A stretch of DNA of 64,000 bases, taken from NCBI GenBank assembly GCA_026026165.1, contig JAPEUD010000010.1, positions 310,001-374,000 on the forward strand, in the 5' to 3' direction. The notes under the pieces are model-generated. The model made no database searches, had not been told where the DNA came from, and was given only the letters and a program-made list of their open reading frames with translations. The translations under genes and the position numbers were made by a program. Source of the stretch: Sarea resinae. Taxonomy: Eukaryota. This document shows positions 3,001 to 28,268 of the stretch, one piece after another. Position 1 is the stretch's first letter. Each line of letters begins with the position of its first letter.

Positions 3001-6000
3001 GCAGGATCGCGAGCCGTCTTTTCGCTCGCTAGTGGATGTACTCTGTACGAATTCCTTGGAAGGGCCGACAGCGGTTAGGTTTGTGAAGCTCTACGGAGTA
3101 CTCATCGTACTCTAAAGCATGCGTGGTACGTGGTGGTCGTGTGGTAAGGATGGCGAGTCGCGTTATGGGGCTGGCTCAGGTACGAATAGAAGGATGATGA
3201 TTCTAGTGGTCTGGACGGATACTACTACTACTGAGGCAGATCCATGAATAGGTAAGGTAGTCAGAAGAACCCAAGGCAGAGAGGCTTGTTCCACCCCCCC
3301 TGCATCGGCTGATCTGGCCTGTTGTCGTAGAAGCATCCATTCTAGGGTACGAGTCGCCCTCCTACCTAGGTATGTGCCTACTCTCTTCAGTTTGGTATCC
3401 ATGTACGAAGTAATGCGATTCGGAACCCGTGAAGACGTAAGGAAAAGCAGGAAACCCTCTCCTCGCGCTTTGAGCAGTATCATTGGCGCTGGCGGCGGGC
3501 TAAGAGCCCTGTTCGACTACTCTCTGTCTGAGGTAGGTGGGTAGGTGGGTAGGTATCACATTGATCTGCTAACAGTATCAACATCGATGATCCCGATGAA
3601 TACGACTGTACTTCATACTTATGAAATGAAATGCCAATCCAGCGGACAGCCGATCAAGTAATGCATGAAGATCTACTCCGTAGGTGTGTGCCTTCTCCTC
3701 CTGCCCGTTGGTCATTTTGAAAAAGGTTTTTGAATTCTTCGCAGATAGGGTTATCGCAATTTCAGTCAAATGTGCCCGGAAAAGAATGGTCCCGTAACAG
3801 CAATGATCACAATTTTCCACAGGCATGTATGTACCGGATAGGCAATTCATCCACGGCTGCGCCTTAAACTGTGTCACGGCCTGGTGCGACATCCCTACTC
3901 GCTCGTCGGAATCTGCCTTGGTCCCTTATCTTCTCTTACACAGGACTACTTTACTCAGGGCAGTCCTAACAGATCGCTTCAATTGTCCTGCCGAGCTTTC
4001 AGCTTTGACTCTGGCGAAAACACAATCAACCATGTCCGCGGGTGGCCTTCGATTTCTTTTCCTTGGTGTGGTCCATGGAGTTAGTAAGGTAGTGGTACGG
4101 TTGGTAGATACTTGGTGGCTAGGGTTAGGTGAATTTGAGTCCGTAGTACCGCGTACTTCGTACTTCGTGCATGCTTGCACACACCCTTGAAGCTTGGAGA
4201 CCTTAGGTACCAACTCGGAGTACCTACTTATGTACTCTATTATATTCACACGCCTGTGGGCTACCGCAAGGCAACTTCCCTCCAGGGAGGCAGGAGTGGT
4301 AAGAACGGCAGTGGTGGAGGTATTATTAGTGCATCTTTCGGGTGAGCTGTGCCTTCGTCCTTCCTACCTGTATCCATCCATCCTTTCTTACCTGATAGGT
4401 ACCTTCTCATCGACCTACCTAGACCTTGCTTCTACTGCGGTAGGCGGTCTTGTCTGTCTGACAGGTCAGCCCCACCATTGCTGTTTGCGAATGAATGCAT
4501 GATCGACTGCTTGCACTTTGTACTTGCCTCCTATGAGTACACTACCTGCTTGGAATAGTCGAAAATTCCAACTACTTACTCAGTAATCACTCGTCATGTC
4601 TCGTCTTTTTTGCTTGTTCGAAACTTTCCACTCTCCGCCCAAGGCATGCGCGCGAGGTGTACGGCTTAGACCCCTCCCCATTTCCTCGTGACACCGGATG
4701 CCTGAGGCCCCTAGAGCATCGTGGACCCAGACCCATTTCTTTTGCCGCCTTCGTATCAGATATGATTTCGGTGCCCACAATACTGATGAGCGCATTGTAA
4801 CCCTTTGGGCGGGCGGCTTGCAGCAGGGTTTGATCTCGTCGCCGACGCGGTCTCAATTAGAGATGGCGAAGGCTTCCGTCTTCTTAGCTGTCGTGTATTA
4901 CTCGAGTAGTCGCCTCTCTATCCCGTCAAGAAGCCAATTATGTCGGCCAAGGTGGCACGCTCCCCTCGCCATCCCACGACCGCATCATCCATCCTGTGCT
5001 CCGATCCGCCCCTCCACGGTCTCGAGCAAGAATCATCAAAGGCCTGGGCGTACCAATCCTGCTGCCGCCGTCGCTTTGGGGCAATCCTGAGCAATCGAAG
5101 AGTTACGGCCTGAATCTAGGCATGGGGGACTGTGATGATCTCGGCGAGCCTGCAGTCTTACTTTATTGCTGGCTCCGAGGATGACGATGCTAGGTGATGC
5201 GTCGCCATTCTTTGATGCCGCCGTACCTCGGATGACTGCAATCTCAGGTTGTTGATCTGCGATTGCATTATTGGATTTGATTGATCCGTATGCTTTCACC
5301 TCGGAGTTGCCTGGCGGACATCTGCCTTGACGCCGACGAGACAACTGCCTGCCAGGAAGGTTGCCACATAGGCCACCAACACGACCACTATCACACGGTG
5401 ATTGTCTCTGCATCAACCCAACACGATTTTGGCGGCCACAAGGATGATCCAGAATAGAGAAGCAGATGAGCCATTGGCATAAGCAACGACATCAGCATCC
5501 CGGAAGTCCGCCGTCGGCGGTCATGCATCGACGAAACAGGCCTTTCGAGATCCTGTCTGGTCCCTAGGCGATATGGGCAGGCGGGAAAGCAGGTCAGACA
5601 GAAATATTCGTGCCGTATTTACGTAGGCCAGGTACCTTAGCTAAGAGGTTTGTGGTAGTGAATTTCCGTCACTAAGGTAACCGGTGTGAAAGCGGTGCAC
5701 CTCCATTCTTTGACTCATCATCGGTTGGGGGGGGAGGGGGGGTCTAGGATCATCGGCGCCGATCCTGAGCCAACTGGAAGCAGGCAGGCTGGAAAGCAAG
5801 CAAATACGGTACTGTGTTTCTAAACGACAGGCAAACATCGAATGGTAGCGCGGTTCGAGAGATTGTCAATAGAAACACTGTCGAGCGTCGGGAGGTCTGT
5901 GGATTCCTGTACTGTGCTTGGTACTGGTTCTCTGTATTCGTACCTCGCAAGGGTAAGGTTGAGCAGCCGCCTTATCGAAGGGGCGCCCATTCCTGCCTCG

Positions 6001-14360: not shown

Positions 14361-15555
14361 CCCGTCTTACATCTGTGCTATACGAGGTATATCTGGGGAT
14401 ATAGATATATATAAAACTATACCAGCACCAGCACCTATGCGTCTAGAACAACTTTTCGACCTCTCAACGTCTCAACTTCTCAATCAACTAATCACAATTA
14501 TTCCCCGAATCAACGAATCAAGTTAATGTGAGAATCAGGCCAGGCCTGGCTGAGAGGGTCTTGTTGCTGCTCCCTCTTCTTTCGTAATGTACTGTGCTAT
14601 GCTGTATGGTGGCACCTTTATTGTACGGTACGGTAGTGTGCTGTAGTGAATCATATCATATCATATTATATCATATCAAAACACATTGTAACGCCCATCT
14701 GATAGCGCACCGCAGACGTGAAGAAAAGGAGAAAAGGAGAAAAAGAGAAAAAAAAAGCACCAATAGCTAACCCCCTGCCCTCCCATCCCACCCAATCTAT
14801 TGCCGTTGCGGTATTTCCTGGTCGTTTGTGCCATCCCGTACCATCTGGCCCTGAAAAACACCAAATACAAAACGCCGAGTGTATATGTCGAGGAAACTTG
14901 TCAGAAGACGCCGCCGCCACTGCCGCCGCCGCCGCCGCCGACCAACAGGCCTCTGTCGTTTTCTCGCTTGCATGTCCGAACTCCTGATGTACGAACTCCT
15001 GATGACTACCTCCCCCCCCCCACTTACACTAGGAAAGAGATCGATGAAACGAATGGAAAAAAAAGGTATATGAAACAATGGGGAAAATAGAGGGAAATAA
15101 ACGACGAGGGAAGAAAGAATGGATGATATACCAGCACGAAATGAGGCAGGAAAGAAAATAAAAGGGACCGAGGAAGGGGAGATCAGCAGGGGAAACAACG
15201 AGGTGGCGGAAAACAAAGAAGAAGACGTAACGAAGAAATAAACGGGACGAGAAGAAAAAGGATCGGTCTAATTCTCATTATAGACCCTGGCTAATCGAAC
15301 AAGGCAGGCGGACGTGAAGAGAGAGAAACAATTATATGCCCGTTCCTCGATGTCGCTGTAGAGCTGCTCCGTAATACGCCGGGGTGATCGGCCAATAACT
15401 GAGGCTTCCGTCTGCATCCTCAGCCTGGCGGTCATGGATGGATGACTTGTTTATCTGATACGAGCCAGACTCTACCTCTTCGGTCTTGCGGAAACATCGT
15501 GTTGTGTATGAAGAGGATATATCTAACCACGTCTTGTCGTCTCTGAGGAGTCTGT

Positions 15556-17269
15556 CTAAGCACTGCCCATCTCATGCCCTGTAGCAGTAGTAGGCGCAGC
15601 AGATCCAGCTTCGGATTCAGACACAGACTCAGGTTCGGCTATCGGATCCAACATCTGAATCTCCTTTGGGGAAGAGGGAGGAAGAGGTTCCGTCGAGCCA
15701 ATGTCCGCTGCTGTGTCTGCCGGTGGCTGGGACAAAGAAGGTTCTTGCGGCGGTCCCACCGGTCCCTGCTCCACCCCCTTTTCCGGTTCTCGCACCTCGT
15801 CAGGCCCGCTTTCCGGCCCCTTCGAGCTTGCTTCGTCTTTATCCTCCCTAAGCCATGCTTCCTCTATTTCAGGCTCTTTTTCGAGGGGCGATGCCGCCTT
15901 CTCCATCAACCGCGCCGCCGATCCCCCCGAAGCAGCCCCCTCTTCCGGGCCCTCCGACTCTTCGTACCAAGGTCCACCACTGCCCTGCGCGACCCACCCG
16001 GAAACCAGTTCCGTCGCCTTCTCCGCAAGCGCGTAGTACCCTGGGTTGTTCTTCGGTGAAAACATATTCATATGTGCCCTCATCTCGTCCGTAGCAGCAT
16101 CGTTCTGCGCCTTGAGGAAATACTTCTTGACCTCGCTCTTCGGCAGCGAGCAAAACGTTCGCTCAGACCCCATGAGCCCAGACGTCACGAGCGCTTTTCC
16201 TTGTGCAGCAGCTCCAAGCGTAGTATAGAGGTCCGTGAAGCCGAGACCGCGGTCCGATTCGAGTTTCGAGATGCGCGCCACGCGCTTCTTGAGCTCCTCG
16301 CCGCGCATCAGACAACCGACGAATTCGAGGTGTGAGCCGAGAAATGTCCAGCCTGCAGCGATCTGGTCGCGATTCATGTACGCGGCAGCACCACCGGCGG
16401 CAACGGCTCCCGCGGCGCCCGCAAACATAGCCACTTTGCCCCAGCGTTGCCACAGTGGTGCAGCGGCCGCATCGCCGGAGGAAGGAAGGGCTTTGGGAAC
16501 CTTGGCGACAGCCTGACTACTACTGCTACTCCCGCTCGAGCTCGCACCCCAGCCGAAGAGGCTTCCGACTTGTGAGATGGTGCTGTAGGCTGTTGAGGCA
16601 TTCTTGTAGTGTTCTTCGGCGCCGTGGGCGACGACGCTGGGGGCTATGCCTAGGTAGGGGGTGTCGAAGGCGAGGATACCTTGAATGTATGGGAACATGA
16701 ATAAGGAGGGCTCGGTGGAGTCTGAGACCGGTTGTTCATTCGCTATGGAGATGGTGGTGTCGGCTGCGACAATGCCTCTGTTCTACTGTTAGTCTACTCG
16801 TGTCTCTGGACACAAATGGCCCGAGGGGGCCAGTGTACGAACCCCATAGAATGGCCGACCAGGACTGTTCTCACGGATGGCTCGATGGTCGGCGACGGGG
16901 TGCCATTTTCGACCTCCATATCAATGACTTTGTTCTGGAGCCTGCCCCGCCATAGGTCATTAGCATCTACCCCACCATGGCTCTCACGGAGAGCCGTATC
17001 AAATATGAGAGAGCTATCATACCAGTTCTTGAATCCGGCAACGCACTCTCGCAAGTCTCCTTTCGTCTCGAACTTGGGATACGTGATCACCTCGACTTTG
17101 ACCTTCGGTAGCGCATGGCTGAGCAATGCACGCAAGTGTTCGGGGAAGCCGCCGAACGTATCATCGCCACCCTTGGAATCGCACTGTCAGTGGTCTGCAT
17201 TTGATTTGAGCAGTAAGTAAAAGATACCTTGAAGCCATGGATAAAGCAGAGCAGCAGCGTTTTCTTCAT
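15556..17269 (-). CDS. Alpha/beta-hydrolase fold protein (lipase-like GHSMG; DUF676/PGAP1-like)
   Basis: Exons 17269-17228, 17171-17023, 16941-16843, 16777-15556. Spliced: MKKTLLLCFIHGFKGGDDTFGGFP...VLVGHSMGGIVAA...GILAFDTPYLG...H(MNMF), followed by an acidic Pro-rich tail. Confidence 0.88.
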
Positions 17270-18568
17270 GCTAGGCAACCTGTCCTCCACATGAATATAT
17301 TGCGACAGTTGAAGTCTGGTCTGGCCACGACATGAAGCAGTAGTCGCCCTAGAGCTGCTGCTCGCTTGTGGCGGCCGCACGACGTAATAGCTCTCCTCCA
17401 TCATCTTGACTTCGCTGCCCACTTGCGACTCTCCAAAGATCTGCGAAGACGATGTTGAGGAAGACTGGAGAGACACTGTACCAACGAAGCCGCTCTGATG
17501 AGGTCGCCCATGAGGCGTTACGAGAACGAATCATCAATAGAGGCGGTATCACTCAATCCATGGATGCTAAGGAATGCTGTTGAGATGTCCACTTCGTGAG
17601 ACTGCCTGCCTCGTTCCTTCCTATACAAACAAACAAACGCGTTTCCTCGGAATAGGGGCACCATATGAGGAGTTACTACCCATCCGTAGGGAGACGTGTA
17701 TAATATAGATATGTCTACGCCTTGTCCGCGCTCGACTATGCGCAAGGACAGTCTCCTATTCTGACAGTTGCCATTCGGCATCTATCTTTTCTGATGGTCT
17801 TGCCGTTCATGCCAAATGATCAAAGGGGAACGTTCAATCATCTATATGTCTGTCTCTTCCAAGCATCGCAAAACAACCTTGATCTCAAAGATATTGCGTC
17901 TTCATTCTCGCTTGTACCTCGTGGCTCATGGCTTCTTCGACCGTGTCCTATTCCAAAGAAGACTGATGAATCGAGTCGAATATGACTCCCCTCCAAAAAT
18001 GGCCTTCCACTCCACGTCCATTCTTCTTACTCTGACTCCCGGCGAGGTAGTCCGATGTCTGTTATGTCTTGAACGCCACTCTATCATCTGGGAATCAGAT
18101 CTATAACTTACTCTATCACGCTGCCCGGCACTGCACCGCACTGCACCGCACAACACCGCCTGATCATTTCCCACATCTTCCGGATATTGCACTACCGTTC
18201 GTCATCCCCATCTCCATCTCCATCCTCATACTCACACATCTCTACCCGTTTCCGTCTCGATCTTTTACTTTCTTACCCACATAAATCGAGGCAGTGATGT
18301 TGCAGAGACAACCATCAAACTTCGAGACACTGCAACCATCTCCCCGGCACCCTGAGGCTCAGCTATTACTTCGCTTGCCGCTCCTGCGCCGATATAATCA
18401 CATAGAAGGAGACTACAGACGGCCAGAGCGGCCAATCGACCCAGCCCGAACAGAAAGACAGGATAGAGACTCGTCAACCGGACAAAATAAAAGGGCCACC
18501 AGCAGATCGCGCAGAGCCACTCTGCAACATCGCTCAGTGGCTTCACAGATTCTCGACAACCGCCTGAG

Positions 18569-18679
18569 ATGGAAATCAACCTTTACGCCCTGCCTCTAGA
18601 GCTGTCCACGTGGCCGATAGAGGATATTATTTTGTGGCTCTGCTTTTTCATCCTCTTGATCTGGGCGTTTGCTGTCTAG
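18569..18679 (+). CDS. Possible 36-aa single-pass membrane micropeptide (unsupported beyond hydrophobicity)
   Basis: MEINLYALPLELSTWPIEDIILWLCFFILLIWAFAV*, with a 17-residue uncharged C-terminal stretch. No family recognised. Confidence 0.15.
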   Translation: MEINLYALPLELSTWPIEDIILWLCFFILLIWAFAV

Positions 18680-19113
18680 GACCAGCAGAGTACCAATTAT
18701 ATCATAATTAGACACTCTGGCTTTTCTCGTCTTCAGCTGACATCGTGTTAATTGATGCATTGCGCGATCACATGACCGCAGCGATCAATACTGTACATGG
18801 TCAGCCCTCGACTGTGATGGTTTGTGTTGACAGTGCAATTCCTGTTGCAGGAGGGGAACTTGTATCTATTGAGGAATAGTTTAGCGCGGATTCTAGTAGA
18901 GGTCGATAGATGTGGGTTGGATGAAAGTTATCGTAGGAATAAAAAGCCTATAGTTCCTCTCAAGGCATTGACTTGGACTTGAAGCTCTAAGCACATGCAT
19001 AGACATGCACGTAACCAGCGAGGAAGTATGAGATCAAGATCGGGCGTGATGACAGTACCTAGCGCGAACGGTGGAGGAAAGATAAGCGGCAAACCAACGG
19101 TAGTGAGTATTGT

Positions 19114-19114
<1 letters not shown>

Positions 19115-19168
<54 letters not shown>
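19115..19168. repeat. (GAT)18 microsatellite
   Basis: Perfect run; it produces the spurious poly-Asp and poly-Ile ORFs in the track. Confidence 0.95.
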
Positions 19169-19171
<3 letters not shown>

Positions 19172-20316
19172 ATGCTGGAGACTGTATTCTAGGGAATATG
19201 GAAGAGGCAGTGCAAGGAAGTAAAGGCATTGAACGGCCCGGAGCGAATGGCTTGCGGTCCGTCCTAGGGCGAAGCCAGACAGAGGCCGCACAAGGTCACA
19301 GAGCTGGGATTGCATGAAACGATGAGCGAGCGAAGACGATTGTGCAGGACCAGAGCCGCATCGACGGGTTGCTAAGGCGGTGTGAGGGCATGGGAAAGGG
19401 CAGGTGCCACGCTGGCGATAGCAGCAGTGGAAGTGCTAGCCAACGTACCTCTACAGTGGTGCTGCGAATGGTCATAAAATGATGTTGGTGGTTTCTAAGA
19501 GCAGAGCATGCGTGCGATGATGTTCGATGGCATGCTACAGGAGCCAAGGGAAACGAAAGTGGGGGGCCATGTTGGAAGTGAGATGATCAAAAATTAGAGT
19601 TCCGCCAAGACTGACCAGCTGCGTGGAGGACCAAGCTGCAGATATGCATGTATGCAGTCCGAGGAGATGGTTCTGGACAGATGATTATTTGGCGAAGGAT
19701 ATTCGTATCGAGGAGCTCTGGAAAGAATGACGCTGCAGACTAGACCAATGAGAGAAGAGAGAAAGAAATCAGATTGAACCTGCAGGCAATAAATAATGGT
19801 AGCCGATGAACGACCAGAGTAAGGCGCCCAACGACCCCTCCCTGACAATAACATGTACCGTGGCAGCGGATATAACAACTCGGCAGACCAACCAGCCGGG
19901 AACCTATGGCGAACGCAAATCAAACAAGAGTCCAACCCGAACTGTCGATGAAGAAGATCCAATCTATAATCTCTGTCCGACGCCGGCTGGAGCGCTCCAC
20001 GTGCGCCAATGCACTTCCAAAATTACCAGATATTATAGCCCATTATGTAGTGTGTCCCTCACACTCTCTAACTCCGAACTCTAAGATCCATCGATGAGTT
20101 GAAGGGAAGAGGAATTCCAGGTGACTGCCCTCGTCGTAAATGGTGAAGCGTTCGAGACCTTCGATGACAAAATTCGTATGAGGTGGCGAGGTATGAAAGG
20201 TGAAAAGGATTGCGAGAGATGAAATATGGGGGAGAAAGATCGGGAACATGGTAGAAGACAGAGGGCTCCGTTTGCGTTATTGTGGTAGTGGTGATATTCG
20301 AGATGTGGCCCGTCTA

Positions 20317-20478
20317 TCATTTGCAGAGAGGGCATTTTCCCGGATAGACAATATACCGCTCGTGAGGGGCGGCCGCACACTTTCCATCCTTTGAGCCATC
20401 CGTTGAGGTCTTGAAGAAGTGTGCGCCAGGATCATGACAGACCGAGTAAATGTAAAAGTTCTTGAAGTATTGGCACAT
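20317..20478 (-). CDS. 53-aa Cys/His-rich microprotein, putatively metal (zinc) binding; not in the ORF track
   Basis: MCQYFKNFYIYSVCHDPGAHFFKTSTDGSKDGKCAAAPHERYIVYPGKCPLCK*, followed by a second in-frame stop (TGA TAG). A canonical 55-nt 5'-UTR intron lies at 20584-20530 (CAG|GTGAGT...GCTGAT...TAG). Confidence 0.78.
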   Translation of the reverse strand: MCQYFKNFYIYSVCHDPGAHFFKTSTDGSKDGKCAAAPHERYIVYPGKCPLCK

Positions 20479-21450
20479 GCCGAGGCGGATATGTTCGAAG
20501 CTGGCGACACGAAAATCGAGGATAGAGTTCTACATTGACATCAGCTCTGCTCCAAGAGCAAGTGACCGCAGGAGCTTGACTCACCTGGTCGACTAATCAC
20601 CGTGCTGAGTATCTCAGTGAATGAAAAATCCAGATGGCGTCGAGCTTTATGGCAGACATCCTGTGGTTGGATTAACGGCGTCGAGCTGCTATGCACGATT
20701 AATTCAATCAGACCCCGGCGACGTCAATCGTGGGTATCTCATGATGGATGGTCCATTCCTTCAATCGGAGCGAGATCAGGCGATGGTGCCCACGCCTCAC
20801 TCACTATAAGTTAGAGATTGTAGTAAAGATCAGAGCTTGCGTCAATGGATAATGGTTAATGCCCGAGAAATACGATTCTGTTGAACAGCAATCACGATGA
20901 TTGCCAGGCCTTCTCGTGTCCGAGCAGGCATCTCAGCATCCCCGGCCTGCCTCCCACACACATAACCAGGAGATACTGTTAGAGCAAGCACTGTATTTAC
21001 CAGGTTTCCCAAGATTCATGAGGCTTGAGCGGGAGCTGCCGCCAGGCGGCCGACGCACGGTATCGTCGCTCCTTTAGTCTGCTCGGCGTCATGGCCCAAG
21101 GGCAGCCCGAGCTGGTCGATAGTAGAGACCAGGGGGGAGGGGAGTTTGTCCACCCCAGCCATAGTCCGGGGGAGATCTGGCTGATTATTGCCGGAGGCCA
21201 GTCAGTGAGCTGTGCAATACCAACTAGTGCTGCAGACTCAATTGAGCACAAATCATGGGACAAAATAGATTTCGATATCCGACCAATACCGGGAATTGTG
21301 GAGCTATGCGGCATGGACTGGTGATGGGCGTAATTGGTAGTTGAGGGAATCATGATCAATAGAATAATTATTATGGGGATTAACATATTATTCACGCGGG
21401 GGGTTAAGGGTAAGGGTAAGGGGGGTGGTAAGGGGGTGGAGGGTGGAAGG

Positions 21451-21529
21451 TGGACAGTGGATGGACAGTGGACGGACAGTGGACGGACAGTGGACGGTGG
21501 ACGGTGGAAAGTGGACAGTGGAAAGTGGC
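21451..21529. repeat. Degenerate minisatellite of TGGACAG/TGGACGG/TGGAAAG units
   Basis: Tandem 7- to 11-nt units seen directly. Confidence 0.85.
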
Positions 21530-24506
21530 ATGAAAGACTGTACGAAGTAGTCTGTTGTCTGTCGTTGGCGGAAGGGCCTTCAAAACGGCCACGGGAGCGA
21601 CTGCCGGACCAGGGCAGGGGGCACGTCCACCCATTAGATTGCTGCCCCCTATCCAGAAGCCGAGAGAAGAGGGATGGAGGCAGGAAGGAGTGAGCGAACG
21701 GAAAAGGAGCTAGGGAGCTACCTGAGGGAGGAGGGAGCGAGGGAGCTAGAGATGTTCCTTCCCCCGTCTTTCAACGGTTACACATGCACATGTGCATCCA
21801 AAGTACTCCACAGTAGTTCAGTAGTTCAGTATGTAACCCAAGTGTGAGGTAGATGATTACCAGAGTCGTTCCTTGGAATTTACCAAGTTCCATCCCTTCC
21901 CTTACTCTTGACATACTCGTGATCCGTTACCGCCTTCGACCGCCTTCGACAGAACCCCGTCCGTCTCGTTCGGTATCGACCGCGCTTAAGCCCGGACGTC
22001 ATCCTCAGGCCAGACGCCAGCCAAATATCACATTGAGCTTCCCGTCGGAAGATCCATCGTCGCCGAGGCATCCCCATTGAGGAGTACTTCCTACCCACCG
22101 TCCAATGGATCATTCCGTCCATTCGCTATTACATAGCAGCCTACACTACTGCTCGGCGCGAGCATAGATTGGACGGTTAATGTGATGCATCTGGAGATAG
22201 AACGGAGCTATCATCGATTCATCGTCGAAAGCGAAAGGAGGACTTGGCTCATCTCGGCCTTTCCATTGCGCTGGATGGACCGATTGGTGGATTCCGGGAA
22301 GCGGACTCGGCGCAGGCCAACGTAAGAGGCGATCTGAGCGGGAGCGCGAGGACGTGGGTTGAACGTGAAGACGAATAACACCAGCCGATGGCCGGAAATC
22401 GTGGGATTGGGGTTTCAACGCCATCCCTGCAGCGGCAAATAGTGAGATCGTGATGTGTCTTTTCATTTCTCCAAGGCTGCTACGGTGTCTGTCTTTATGT
22501 TTGGGAAGCGCGCACAAGTGCATACGTGCGAGAGATCACGGAATAGATATTCGGGACGTACGTAAGCCCGGCGGTGATCTTGGGCTCCATGCCGCGAGCG
22601 CAAGCAGCCCAAGAGGAGGAAATTGGGAGGTTGGACGATCCTTGGGACGTCATATGGACTGGTCTGGGGGGAGGCAGAAGGCAGAAGGCAGAAGGCAGAG
22701 GGAGGAAAATGAACAAGTCGGGGTGTTTTGCCGACTCCAGACACGTCGATGCGTGTTCTCCAGAATCAAGATATCTACCAGTGAATAGCTCCCCTTCCAT
22801 CATGATTGGAGCAATGCACCGTGCTTCCGGCCAAGGCGCAGAATGCAGTTGCATGCAGGTGTAGTCACGGTGGTGAGCATTCTGCGCCTTGGCCGGAAGC
22901 ACGGTGGTGATGCACGAAGTATGAAGTACGATTGTCAAAAGATTCTTGTTCGCCGAATGCTTGAGCTGTTGCCTTTTGGATCGTGGCAGAAAGTAGGCAA
23001 CGACCGTTGAACTGCCGTGTCTAGGCGACCATGACCATGCAGTATCAAATGATGCGATACGCTCCATCTGGATTGATCAGGGCTGTATGGTTGCCCAATG
23101 CGGTAGTTGGATGGGATGCTGGCCGGTTCCGATTTTGATTTATCCTTTCGTTTTCGTTTTCGATTTCGATTTCGATTTCGATGCCCGATGCCCGATGCTC
23201 GATGCTCGATGCTTGGTGCTCGACGCTCGACGCTTGATGCTAGATGTCGGATGCTGGTTGTTTTGCTCAATGCATTGTCACGGGCTTACGACTTGATACG
23301 ACTGTGTATGCAGTTCTCCAGCTCACACTCAAAAGCAAGCGCGCTCTTATTGTGTTTCCTTCTCCCCCCGATTCCTTTCCCTTCCTTCCCTCTCCCACGC
23401 ACACTGCTGCATGCAGGCAAGGATCGAGCGGGGCAGACCGCGGATCAACAAAGGTTCCGACGCGTCGGAAAGCTCGAGGCAACCCTAAAGTCGCACAAAC
23501 CCTGCGACAAGCACAGACACCACGGACAAGCCGCATCAACCCTTCTTCGATCCGACTCGTCTGGTCTGTTCCGCGTCGAGATCCATGGCAGTGTGCCGGT
23601 GTGCATGCGCAGAGGACAGGGGTGGGCAGAAGGGTGCGACGACCGAGTAGGCAACCACTTACCACGTCGTCCATAAGACTACTCCGGAGGACGAATACTT
23701 CGAGTCCCCTCCTGGTGCATTAGGGCTTCGTCTTGATTGAATGGAATGGAGGACCGAAGCACTATGGATGTATGGCATCGAGGATGAGGAAAGGGGTGCC
23801 GTCGTGCATCTCACTTCATTATTGCCTCATCCGCTCCTCTGCCAGACCTCGACGACGTACTACACTACTACGTAGAGACATCATCTCCACCCGCACTCGG
23901 GGATGACTCCTTGAATGGCAATAGCAGATACTTGCTCGTCGTACCAGAAAGTAAGGTTAAATGCGAAACACTGCCGACTGAAGATCACGTCAAACACAGC
24001 AGCAGCGTTGTTGTTATCGTTGGTCGGACGACCACGGATGGCGCTTCGAATTGATTGATGGCAGCTGACTCATCCGAGTCTTGGCTGTGCCTCGGTGCAA
24101 AATTACGGCCGGCGATGCAATCCCATCACGTAGCCGTCGTACGGTGGCCCGTAGCCACCGCGAGACACGAGGCTCCTATTTTGACAATTCTCCATCTCCC
24201 TCTGAACGGACTGTGATTGTTGTTATCGCCTGTTCAACCGTCCTCCCCCTCCCTCCACCGCCCTCAACCCTCCCACTCTCCCGCTGTGCCCTGCAGTGCC
24301 CGTCATTCGCTACACCTACACTCGTTTCCAGTCCGAATCTCTTTCGCTGAATCCGTCTCGTCTCCTCTTCCTCGGCAGCCTCGTCCTTTTCCGCCTCGTC
24401 GCCAGGGCACCCGTGCCTCGTCTGCGTACCCCCCGTCAGACACCTCCCATCAGTCACCATCACCATCATCCGGATTTGCTTGTGAACCGCACACTCTACC
24501 GCCGCC

Positions 24507-25596
24507 ATGGGGTTCGGAGACTTCACTACGATATGCCACCAGGCCGGCGTGCCGCTGTGCTCTCTGGTGGGCCCTCCAAACGGCATCTCAGGCAACACGG
24601 GCATCGAGCCGTACTGCTACTCGCGCAACATCGACGTCGCCAACACCATCATCTTCCAGGGCGCCGCCAGCTTCATGCACATCGTGGCGCTGATCATGAC
24701 CGCCATTATGATCATCCACGTGCGATCCAAATTCACCGCCGTCGGTAAGTCTTGCATGCCAGACAAATTCTTCAAGGAAACCATATCTCTAATTTTCTTT
24801 CTTGTTACTATAAATAGGTCGGAAAGAAATCACCACTTTCTTTTATATCTTCATGGCGCTGACCATCTGCTCGCTGCTCCTGGATGCCGGCGTCATTCCA
24901 CCCCGCTCCGGTTCGTTCCCGTACTTCACGGCCGTACAAAACGGCCTCACCTCGGCCCTCTGTACCTGTCTCCTCATCAACGGCTTCGTCGGCTTCCAAC
25001 TTTACGAAGACGGCACGCGGCTCTCGGTCTGGCTCCTCCGGCTCAGCTCGCTCGCCATGTTCATCATCTCGGGTGCGGTGTCCCTGCTGACGTTTCAATC
25101 ATGGGGTGGCCTGTCCCCGACCAAAACCGTCGGCATGTTCGTGGTGCTCTACATCATCAACGCCATCTTCATCTTCGTGTACCTCGTGATGCAAATCGTG
25201 CTCGTGGCCAACACGCTGCAAGACCGGTGGCCACTCGGCAACATCGCGTTCGGGGTCTTCTTCTTCGTGGTCGGGCAAGTGCTGCTGTACGCGTTCGGCG
25301 AGAAGATCTGCCACGGGGTGCAGCACTACCTAGATGGCCTCTTCTTCGCAACCATCACCAACCTGCTCGGCGTCATGATGGTCTACAAGTACTGGGACTC
25401 CATCACCAAGGAGGACCTCGAGTTCAGCGTCGGCATCAAGCAGAACAACTGGGAGGTCAAGGAGCTGCTGCCCGACGACGACCGCCGGACCACGATGATG
25501 TACCACGACGGCACCAGCGGCGGCTCCGAGTACGCCAGCAGCGTCTTCCACCAGCCCACGAGACGCAACTCCAACTTTGGCGGCTATGCCTACTGA
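24507..25596 (+). CDS. CHS7: Chitin synthase export chaperone (ER, multi-TM), ~338 aa
   Basis: Exons 24507-24744 and 24818-25596. Motifs: LPLC-like VPLCSLVG, CYSRNIDVANTIIFQ, VRSKFTAVGRKEI, GFVGFQLYEDGT, HYLDGLFF, VMMVYKYWDSITKEDLEFSVG. Confidence 0.96.
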
Positions 25597-25949
25597 GATG
25601 CGTTTGTTTTGTTTACGTAGCTTTGTATGGGGTCTTGTTTTCATGGGCGGGCGGGTTCCTTCTGTTATGGTTTATACATCCTGTATTCGGAGTCCAACGG
25701 GGCCCGGGACGGGCGGTTTCTTGTTCTCATATAGCGGCGCCCCAAAAATACACTTACAATATATATAATACATCCATCTATCCATCCAGGAAAGGAGGTT
25801 CTCTATCCACAGATGGAGATGGCACTGTCCAACAACAATCGAGTGTGTTTATTTCGTCCCCCTTTACTGCTTTCTGCTTTCATCATCTTGGCACCTGTAA
25901 ATAATATAATATATAAACATATACGTATATCAAAACCATCTCAACCAGC

Positions 25950-26014
25950 TATCCATCCATCCATCCATCCATCCATCCATTCATCCATCCATCCATTCAT
26001 CCATCCATCCATCC
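25950..26014. repeat. (CCAT)n imperfect tetranucleotide microsatellite
   Basis: Seen directly between the convergent CHS7 and GNAT 3' ends. Confidence 0.92.
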
Positions 26015-26386
26015 AAAAACCCAAGCAAACAGACCCCAACGATCACAAGATCCAATCATCCGATGACCCAATTATCCCAAGGGGCTCTCGAAGATGAAAG
26101 CGAAAGTCAAAGTAGCCGGTATACTCCGGAGTATATATATATATCGAATGGAGATTTCGATTCTATGCTATCCTATCCTATTCTGTTCTGTTCAGTTCTC
26201 TGTCCAGCTCGATTCAGTTCTGGTAGATTCTGTTATATTCTCATAATCTGGGCATATCTCCACCCCCCGTGTGTTCCATCCCCCGTCTGCTGTTTCCTGT
26301 TCCCCCCGTTTTCCGTCCCCCCCAAGCCCCCGGGGCGTTTGAGGGTTAAGTGGACTGGCTACCTAGGTAGGTAGGTAGGTAGGTAC

Positions 26387-28268
26387 CTAGTAGCTGGCGT
26401 CTTGGGTACTAGGTAGACGATAGGGAGCGGGAGCAGGAGCTGATACGGTTGAAGGTGCGGTTCTACGAGCAGGTGCCGCAGAGATGGTGGCGGTGGTGGT
26501 AGTGGTGGTGGAGGCGGGCGTTTTCGAGTCTTTCACATCTGCTTCTCCCGTCCCATCTCCTTTCATCCCATCTTCTCTTTCTTCCTCTAACCAATCTTTC
26601 GTCTTCGTCTTCATCTCCGTCTTCGGTGCCGATATCGACGTCGAAGTCGAAGTCGAAGTCGACGTATCAGCAGCCTCCAAGCTCACCGAGTCTAGGTCGG
26701 CGACGGCGGCGACGGCGGTGGTGGCCGCGGCAGGAGCTTTGGCTTCTTTCTTGCTTGCGGGCTGGGGGTCGCGGATCATGCAGAATAACTGCGGGGACAG
26801 TGCACGGTTAGTCCGGTTTAGGTGTGAGTTGGACTTAGAGTTACTGTTGGGGTGACTGTTGGGCTCAGGGATAGGGATGGGGGTCCAGTGAGTTTCTGCA
26901 TCGCGTTTCTTGAAGAGAGATAAGAGAGAGAGGGGGGGGGGGGGGGGGGGGGGGGAGGGGGAAGGGAAATGCAATTAGCAAGAAAAAAACGTACCTTGCA
27001 CGCCTCGCCGCCCTCCTCGAGCACCATCTCGCGCACCAGCCGGAAGCCCAGCCGTTCGTAGATGGCCACGTTCGGCACGTCGCGCGAGCTCTCGAGGTAG
27101 CACGGCAGGCCCTCGGCGTCGGCCTTTTCCGTCACCTTCTGGAACAGCCGTTTGCCGATGCCGCGGCCCTGCGCGCTCGGCAGCACCGTGACGATGTTGC
27201 AGAAGTAGTAGCCTGATGGGTTGGTCCAGATGGCGGATTGCAGGGTTGCTTGAGAGCTTTTCCAGAGGTAGTAGCGCTGGGTTTTGCAAAGGGGTCAGTT
27301 TGGGAAGAATGTGGGTGGTATCTCGGGGTTGGGGAGGGAGGGAGAGGGGGGTTCGGTGGAGGAAGGAACACATGGGAGAGGAAGGGAGCAGTGAGTAGTA
27401 AGGGAGAAGCGGAACAGGAAAAGAGAAATGTGAGATCCACTGCTTTTCCGTGGGTGGTGAGACGAACAAACTCAAAAAACCCAAAACAAGCCTATAGAGC
27501 AACCAACTCGACAGGACGAAAGAGTAGCCGCAAACACACAAACGCACAAACACACCTTGACATTCAATCCGCCCCTGCCATACCAGGCATTCATGCCGAC
27601 CTGCCTCGCCCACAGCCACCAGCCCTGCATCCACTCATCCCAAGACACGGGAGCGTCCAGCCGCCTCGGCGGCATCCACATGGCGGTACCGAGGACTTTT
27701 GACGGCGTCGACGAGGCCGGGTCCTTGGCGACGTAGAAGAGCGCATTGCGGATCCCCCATCTGCATCTGATGCCCAGGGAAGCGCGGTTGCGCGTGAGGT
27801 TGTACTATGGGATGGCTATTGCATTAGTCTGGCGGATTAGACTGTGAAGACGGTTAAAAGTGAAATTGGTTGAGACGCCGGAAACAGGGGTTCTGGTGGT
27901 AGTATCTACTCGGATTACATCCTTTGAGGAAGACAGCAATCCAACAACGGGACATATCCGTCTATCAATCACTCAACCACCGCCCGAGTCCCCCTTAAGA
28001 CTCAGACCAAGCACCTCAAACCAAACTCCCTCAACCAAACATGAAACACACCCGAGACGAACAATAAACATAAAACACCCGAGACAGACCAAACAAAAAC
28101 AAAACAAAGCAACAGCAACACCCCCTCCACTACTCCGCAGGGAAAACACACCTTGGACCGATCATTGAAGATCCACCGATTGTACGGATCATCCGCAAAG
28201 GCCAACTGAATAGTATCGATAGCCCCCGGGATATCCTCCTCGGTTAACGGCGTGACTTCTATTGGCAT
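26387..28268 (-). CDS. GNAT-family N-acetyltransferase with a low-complexity C-terminal tail, ~349 aa
   Basis: Exons 28268-28152, 27804-27556, 27276-26995, 26788-26387 (all phase 0). Acetyl-CoA motif VTVLPSAQGRGIGK, plus CYLESS and NVAIYERLGF; N-terminus has LAFADDPY. Confidence 0.9.
26932..26955. repeat. G24 homopolymer (C24 on the sense strand) inside GNAT intron 3
   Basis: Seen directly. Confidence 0.9.

Follow-up and report, generated by a model that had tools for sequence, protein, structure and literature searches.

A conserved Cys/His microprotein gene with a putative 5′-UTR intron in an apparently intergenic region of Sarea resinae

The stretch of Sarea resinae DNA analyzed here is 64,000 nt long (assembly GCA_026026165.1, contig JAPEUD010000010.1, positions 310,001 to 374,000) and is referred to below as the window, with coordinates counted from its first letter. 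On its minus strand, at 20478-20320, it carries a 53-codon open reading frame (ORF) that we interpret as a genuine, independently transcribed microprotein gene with a spliced 5′ untranslated region (UTR) and a product built as a Cys/His metal module; to this reading as a whole, architecture and metal module together, we assign a probability of about 0.72. The gene would begin with a short first 5′-UTR exon, followed by a 55-nt intron at 20584-20530, a 51-nt leader, the 53 codons and the stops TGA TAG, with the following elements.

20530..20584, minus strand: putative 5′-UTR intron of 55 nt, with donor GTGAGT, branch-like GCTGAT and acceptor TAG
20479..20529, minus strand: predicted 5′-UTR segment (leader in the second exon) of 51 nt, free of ATG, placed by the splice signals
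20320..20478, minus strand: microprotein coding sequence of 53 codons, from the ORF list and its translation, homologues, alignments, selection analysis and tblastx
20314..20319, minus strand: tandem stops, TGA at 20319-20317 with TAG directly after it

Homologues and selection on the reading frame

An exhaustive phmmer search with the 53-residue translation against 1.84 billion cluster representatives returned 98 matches at E ≤ 1e-3, of which 73 reach E ≤ 1e-10 (best, 7.6e-20). The matches cover residues 1-52 at 45-69% identity, the closest being 69% identical. A word-index protein search with the same single sequence returned no candidate, which we take as a limit of that method's sensitivity and not as an absence of relatives, since the exhaustive search found 98. 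When a profile of 31 members was used instead, 40 further proteins were recovered at E ≤ 1e-3, and the named ones are all fungal. Every named homologue is annotated as a hypothetical protein, without exception. The genera represented are Aspergillus, Penicillium, Talaromyces, Thermomyces, Emmonsia, Podospora, Neurospora, Cryphonectria, Diaporthe, Xylaria, Sarocladium, Ilyonectria, Dactylonectria, Sclerotinia, Rutstroemia, Oidiodendron, Letharia, Variospora and Phylliscum, which we take to belong to the Eurotiomycetes, Sordariomycetes, Leotiomycetes, Lecanoromycetes and Lichinomycetes. Judged from these matches, the window gene is a member of an existing, unnamed and uncharacterised Pezizomycotina family of 52-56-residue proteins. 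The first-pass annotation, made earlier from the letters of the window, had noted a likeness to small hypothetical proteins, without names, from filamentous ascomycetes and had proposed a homologue search; the named matches bear the likeness out, and the Cys/His spacing is kept in most of the domain sequences aligned.

Examples of the family are PODANS_1_18110 (CAP67940.1) of Podospora anserina, ASPCADRAFT_202737 of Aspergillus carbonarius, EMCG_03780 of Emmonsia crescens, OIDMADRAFT_18174 of Oidiodendron maius and PDIG_67430 of Penicillium digitatum. The window protein shares their length, their Met-Cys start, an end 0-4 residues after a CxxC motif and the same seven Cys/His positions, and the identity given above extends over the whole protein. 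Within the family it is divergent: no match exceeds 69% identity, Ala stands where most members have Gly37, and there is an extra, non-conserved His15; nothing essential differs. Pfam contains no match to the window protein even at E ≤ 10. In the ESM Atlas the nearest cluster is an unnamed ascomycete 53-residue "hypothetical protein" (score 0.95), which is probably the family itself, and a search restricted to named entries gave no usable match. A literature search, with the supplementary tables of transcriptome papers lying outside it, returned no paper naming any of 13 family locus tags, and the listings from a topical search on the family held nothing relevant. Two proteins were left out of the alignments and the Cys/His count: P0097, a low-complexity repeat artefact (993 residues, eight stretches), and P0134, an unrelated 493-residue protein in a cluster listing. 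One 90%-identity cluster holds six distinct sequences with Ilyonectria robusta tags and five with Dactylonectria macrodidyma tags, so the gene is multi-copy in these fungi; near-identical paralogues of this kind are unusual for a housekeeping microprotein and suggest recent duplication or carriage on a repeated element.

Within the window, the listed ORF (20317..20478 including its stop) encodes 53 residues, and its translation is identical to the sequence quoted in the first-pass annotation, whose minus-strand ORF with a double stop is present exactly as described. The cysteines it had counted are likewise found at positions 2, 14, 34, 49 and 52, the last two forming the terminal CxxC, and the three histidines at 15, 20 and 39. 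Between the nearest upstream in-frame stop and the ATG at 20478 there is no other in-frame ATG in either splice state; the stop lies 17 codons upstream in the unspliced sequence and 22 codons upstream (a TGA) after removal of the intron. The length of the ORF is at chance level and lends no support to a gene: the gap at 17401-24500 holds 35 ATG-initiated ORFs of at least 53 residues, with 22.2 ± 4.5 expected from 200 first-order Markov random sequences, and several of them match the microprotein ORF in their number of cysteines. What lifts this ORF above chance is its homology, not its appearance. A perfect (TGA)x18.7 microsatellite at 19114-19169 produces local poly-Asp, poly-His and poly-Ile chance ORFs in the same gap, and Rfam has no match in 17000-25000.

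Conservation at the DNA level was analyzed in 80 related loci obtained from a scan of metagenome contigs. All 80 have an ATG at codon 1 by construction, because the search pattern contained the Met. The ORF stops after 52-56 codons in 75 of these loci, and an in-frame upstream ATG is missing in 66. The five exceptions in length are L054 (248 residues), L055 (301 residues, running off its contig) and L068-L070 (145 residues); in these (L054:1842-2585, L055, and L068-L070 at about 3189-3651) the domain is N-terminal in a longer frame whose tail has no Pfam match, and the long frames could reflect either genuine fusions or a frame that continues into an intron.

The loci contain 54 distinct 156-nt coding sequences, among which the median proportion of synonymous differences is 0.80, that is, saturated, while the median proportion of nonsynonymous differences is 0.18. 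The ratio of nonsynonymous to synonymous substitution rates (dN/dS) has a median of 0.10 across the 479 pairs with finite dS, and a value of 0.08 (maximum 0.41) across the 47 pairs with dS between 0.05 and 1. Column entropy at codon positions 1, 2 and 3 is 0.52, 0.41 and 1.37 bits, respectively. When the window gap was compared with 20 loci by tblastx, the sole conserved coding block was 20478-20323, bounded by the ATG and the stop. By these measures purifying selection on the microprotein gene is strong, and the 53-codon ORF is almost certainly a real protein-coding gene under selection, as the first-pass annotation had held; dN/dS, which it had proposed as a check with values below 1 counting in favour, is about 0.1 with synonymous sites saturated, and the limits of conservation in the gap coincide with the start and stop codons.

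The putative 5′-UTR intron and the extent of the transcript

The intron that the first-pass annotation had placed about 50 nt before the ATG was located at 20584-20530, with borders GACCAG/GTGAGT...GCTGAT...TAG/AACTCT and its end 51 nt upstream of the start codon. The 55 nt contain two ATGs and the 51-nt leader after them contains none; splicing would therefore delete two upstream ATGs, which fits the usual benefit of removing upstream starts. We searched for further introns of this type with a strict motif, based on the donor, branch and acceptor consensus that we assume for fungal introns. Its density over the whole window is 0.3 per kb of strand, and on both strands of 17531-24500 it occurs twice, both times at most 330 nt upstream of the ORF and on the same strand. 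In a comparison set of 52 distinct loci with 400 nt on either side, the window included, the strict motif is found upstream on the sense strand in 24 loci, compared with 1/52 downstream and 3/52 on the upstream antisense strand as controls, and in 21 of the 52 it ends 20-58 nt before the ATG. Among relatives sharing the aromatic residues 4-5 of the window protein, the distance from motif end to ATG is 45 nt in L003, 47 nt in L073 and L076, and 58 nt in L024. Removal of the intron in silico leaves 20 of the 21 loci without an in-frame upstream ATG, which, together with the TGA 22 codons upstream in the window, argues for an intron in the UTR and not in coding sequence. We therefore suggest that the 5′-UTR intron at 20584-20530 is probably real, and the claim of such an intron in the first-pass annotation gains comparative support.

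Several observations weigh against this architecture. The strict motif is missing in 28 of the 52 distinct loci, and a relaxed version is only moderately enriched, occurring upstream in 38/52 and in the two controls in 14/52 and 13/52. Most of the 43 distinct loci listed have a TATAWA box 179-278 nt upstream of the start codon, and the window has none within 500 nt upstream of its ATG. Transcription, splicing and translation of the gene in this fungus are deduced here from comparison of DNA. Among the 80 metagenome loci no pair of spliced and unspliced sequences was found, and the short contigs contained no poly(A) ends. Logan contigs from an RNA library (run X1) were also mapped on 15000-27000. 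None falls on 20213-21014, a missing cover that counts neither for nor against expression. In the gap, contigs lie at 18635-18785, 19694-20044, 21416-21816, 22175-22339 and 23020-23420, with few mismatches (2/351 at 19694-20044 and 0/165 at 22175-22339); they could represent unannotated transcription, such as an extended 3′ UTR belonging to the microprotein gene, or non-coding RNAs, or alternatively DNA carried in the library.

The same locus could be explained without an independent microprotein gene. If the ORF were the last exon or another part of a longer protein, the supposed UTR intron would be a coding intron, and this would account for the N-terminal extensions in 46 of 76 domain-bearing gene calls, for the frames that continue past the CxxC in L054, L055 and L068-L070, and for fused forms in which the domain accompanies a Clr5 domain (P0092) or a C2H2-looking N-terminus judged by eye (P0094 and P0099). 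However, the extensions are mutually dissimilar and unrelated before the Met, which stands directly before Cys2 in 75 of the 76 proteins whose domain a Cys/His-spacing pattern locates. With an in-frame stop ahead of the ATG in either splice state and no ATG between the two, with tblastx conservation limited to the interval from ATG to stop, and with just 12 unnamed gene calls, lacking any Pfam domain or named architecture, returned by a search for longer fused relatives, we consider this explanation very unlikely. Less likely still is that the ORF is a conserved upstream ORF or regulatory peptide on a long transcript whose real product is the gene at about 17530-15559. The ORF is indeed short, with a leader before it and 2.8 kb without a recognised gene after it, and the RNA-library contigs at 19694-20044 and 18635-18785 lie downstream of it. 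Yet that downstream gene is not a conserved neighbour, its homologue in L003 lying on the opposite strand across CHS7 (the divergent gene for the chitin synthase export chaperone, described below), and in other lineages a convergent CFEM gene takes its place; moreover, a predicted folded domain (mean confidence 90) that is also fused in larger proteins is unexpected for a stalling peptide. A chance ORF in non-coding or repeat-derived DNA, its homology reflecting conserved DNA and not protein, would agree with the abundance of equally long ORFs in the gap (35 observed, about 22 expected) and with the empty word-index search, but it is refuted by the 98 protein matches, the conserved positions of start and stop, and the signs of selection, namely amino acids kept while synonymous sites are saturated and a column entropy at third positions roughly threefold that at the first two. 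As the 54 distinct coding sequences show, the loci are not copies of one another, and we give this last explanation practically no weight.

Conserved residues, predicted fold and a candidate metal site

Fourteen residues (M1, C2, Y9, Y11, C14, H20, G28, C34, P38, H39, R41, I43, C49 and C52) are at least 90% conserved in alignments of 31 and 79 sequences, and the window protein retains all of them. His15 is not conserved, which leaves a conserved set of five Cys and two His; the full set of seven (C2, C14, H20, C34, H39, C49 and C52) is present in 128 of the 145 domains that are near full length. Among rows complete at the positions concerned, C14, C49 and C52 are kept in all but P0090, while the embedded forms P0092, P0094 and P0099 lack C2 and C34 together. 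This pattern of loss suggests a core of C14, H20, C49 and C52 with an accessory pair of C2 and C34, possibly joined by H39. In P0092 the domain precedes the Clr5 domain (PF14420, E 1.7e-5), and in P0094 and P0099 it follows the C2H2-looking segment; these embedded forms hint at a nuclear or chromatin context.

An AlphaFold2 model based on the 79-row alignment has a mean predicted local distance difference test score (pLDDT) of 90.1 and a predicted template modelling score of 0.65, with strands at 5-11, 23-27 and 39-45, so the structure prediction proposed in the first-pass annotation yields a confident three-stranded model. Foldseek found no match in the PDB at E ≤ 1e-3, its weak rows including small ribosomal proteins with a probability of 0.03 and E > 3. 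The best Z that VIA-align reached across 48,161 chains was 2.5, VIA re-alignment of the top 15 Foldseek rows gave none at Z ≥ 2, and the family profile against PDB sequences returned a single irrelevant row (E 3.5). For a model of 53 residues, a missing PDB match is neither proof of a new fold nor exclusion of a zinc ribbon.

We propose that the product, which would have no signal peptide, is a compact three-stranded β mini-domain whose loops and termini carry the five conserved cysteines (2, 14, 34, 49 and 52) and two histidines (20 and 39). The protein is presumably cytosolic or nuclear because no N-terminal hydrophobic stretch is seen by eye, in agreement with the lack of a signal peptide reported in the first-pass annotation. 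It may act as a metal-binding module, for which zinc would be the likeliest metal, with C14, H20, C49 and C52 as the indispensable site and C2, C34 and H39 as a second site or stabilising bridge. Both faces of the sheet carry aromatic and basic residues that are conserved (Y9, Y11, R41 and Y/F42), which would suit binding to a partner better than enzymatic activity.

Two known types of metal site were compared with the family. The heavy-metal-binding domain PF19335 (HMBD) is a bacterial module of about 28 residues, usually found within large transport proteins. A likeness to it was detected in 4 of the 79 alignment members and in 5 of 25 proteins scanned individually at E ≤ 1, where the last 20 residues, a segment that starts at C34 and runs one residue past C52 (pattern CPxGPHERYIVxPGxCPLCG), align to profile positions 4-22 of 28, and both share the order Cys...His...CxxC, which we take to be the HMBD ligand pattern. 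Unlike HMBD, the fungal protein has 33 more N-terminal residues with three further conserved ligands. Membership was rejected, as the window protein has no match at E ≤ 10 and its highest-scoring relatives reach 10.4-13 bits, the cut-off being 23.6; the likeness is best regarded as a lead for a Cys/His/CxxC site. Zinc ribbon and rubredoxin-type modules share with the family a small size, three strands, a high Cys content and a C-terminal PGxCPxC knuckle. A classical zinc ribbon was also rejected, since it has two CxxC (or CxxH) knuckles, whereas the fungal protein has one (C49-x2-C52) and its other ligands are arranged as C-x11-C-x5-H and C-x4-H.

On balance we lean towards the view that the microprotein binds metal, for which the argument is drawn from residue conservation. 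That view is tempered by the HMBD scores, which lie far below the cut-off, and by a conflict over the site itself: the HMBD likeness would put C34, H39, C49 and C52 together, whereas the pattern of loss favours C14, H20, C49 and C52. The five cysteines could equally serve disulfides or another cofactor. The gene may thus be exactly as proposed while its Cys/His residues form disulfides, a redox-active pair or a copper or iron-sulfur site, making the product a redox or metal-trafficking factor. An odd number of cysteines which, with two histidines, gives a total of seven ligands where two tetrahedral sites would need eight, would be easier to understand in this case, as would the invariant Cys after the initiator Met, the sub-threshold resemblance to PF19335, and the joint loss of C2 and C34 in three fused forms, as expected of a pair. 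On the other hand, a protein with no signal peptide or organelle-targeting stretch visible by eye would reside in the reducing cytosol, where disulfides are unusual, and a terminal PGxCPxC knuckle is typical of zinc sites. The present evidence does not separate one metal from another, and we regard a role of this kind as a fairly unlikely alternative to the zinc module.

Neighbouring genes and implications

The microprotein gene lies between a divergent neighbour upstream and a multi-exon gene downstream; a different downstream neighbour is found in some related loci.

24507..25596, plus strand: CHS7 (chitin synthase export chaperone, PF12271), divergent neighbour with at least two exons
15556..17530, minus strand: downstream neighbour, a multi-exon gene; homologues occur in L003 and L073, with a weaker match in L052
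L041:5848-6411, minus strand: CFEM-domain ORF of a related locus, with homologues in L011, L018, L026, L034, L035, L039, L042 and L045

CHS7 is identified by PF12271 on 24853-25596 (E 1.8e-86; 290.6 bits against a cut-off of 25.1), its first exon at 24507-24746 matches related loci, and its start lies about 4.0 kb from the microprotein ATG. The divergent arrangement across shared non-coding DNA, which the first-pass annotation had pointed out, recurs: a CHS7 homologue is located upstream on the opposite strand in 12 related loci, at a distance of 1.5-3.1 kb. Eleven of the 12 belong to the 29 loci whose upstream DNA extends for 4.5 kb or more, and the twelfth is L021; with the window, the pairing is seen in 13 loci carrying 9 distinct microprotein sequences, some of them closest to Aspergillus proteins and others at most 69% identical to any named protein. 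In L003, where the homologue of the 15556-17530 gene has moved beyond CHS7, the CHS7-microprotein pair is still together. CHS7 was not found within 5 kb in those loci that most resemble Leotiomycete and Sordariomycete proteins. In the interval that separates the microprotein gene from CHS7, the window contains short tandem arrays (GTGGACA-type, TTTCGA and TCGATGC) at 21443-21528 and 23146-23255. The related loci L072 and L073 are 97.6% identical from the microprotein region onward and divergent toward CHS7 (upstream of about 3270-3427), and L072 has no CHS7 within 5 kb, which indicates a structural difference in the shared intergenic region.

On the downstream side, a Pfam scan of the 380-residue ORF (15556-16698) of the neighbouring gene gave no family. 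In 9 Leotiomycete-like loci (7 sequences), a CFEM-domain ORF (PF05730, E 1.1e-10) is convergent just downstream of the microprotein gene. A complex prediction for the Chs7 second-exon product (247 residues) with the microprotein and two zinc ions, run without controls or alignments, scored 0.00 and counts neither for nor against binding. The CHS7 and CFEM neighbourhoods suggest a link to the cell surface. Because the head-to-head CHS7 gene is kept despite rearranged neighbours and a CFEM gene adjoins in 9 loci, one could go further and see in the family an undescribed Cys5His2 metal-binding fold on a three-stranded sheet, tied to cell-surface biosynthesis, its members serving the export of chitin synthase or the assembly of the cell wall as a co-regulated small subunit or a regulator; we consider this bold reading speculative and improbable as it stands.

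The finding alone settles no long-standing question. Although the microprotein gene lies in about 7 kb of apparently intergenic DNA and falls below the usual ORF cut-offs, it ranks with the better-conserved elements of its surroundings and illustrates how comparison can recover small genes that length would miss. The family to which it belongs is broad and strongly constrained, with no Pfam entry and a confidently predicted fold for which no solved counterpart was found. Knock-outs are easy in Podospora, Aspergillus and Neurospora, and the family lends itself to an initial functional study of a microprotein that is specific to fungi and putatively binds metal; the conserved pairing with CHS7 offers a concrete, testable hypothesis.

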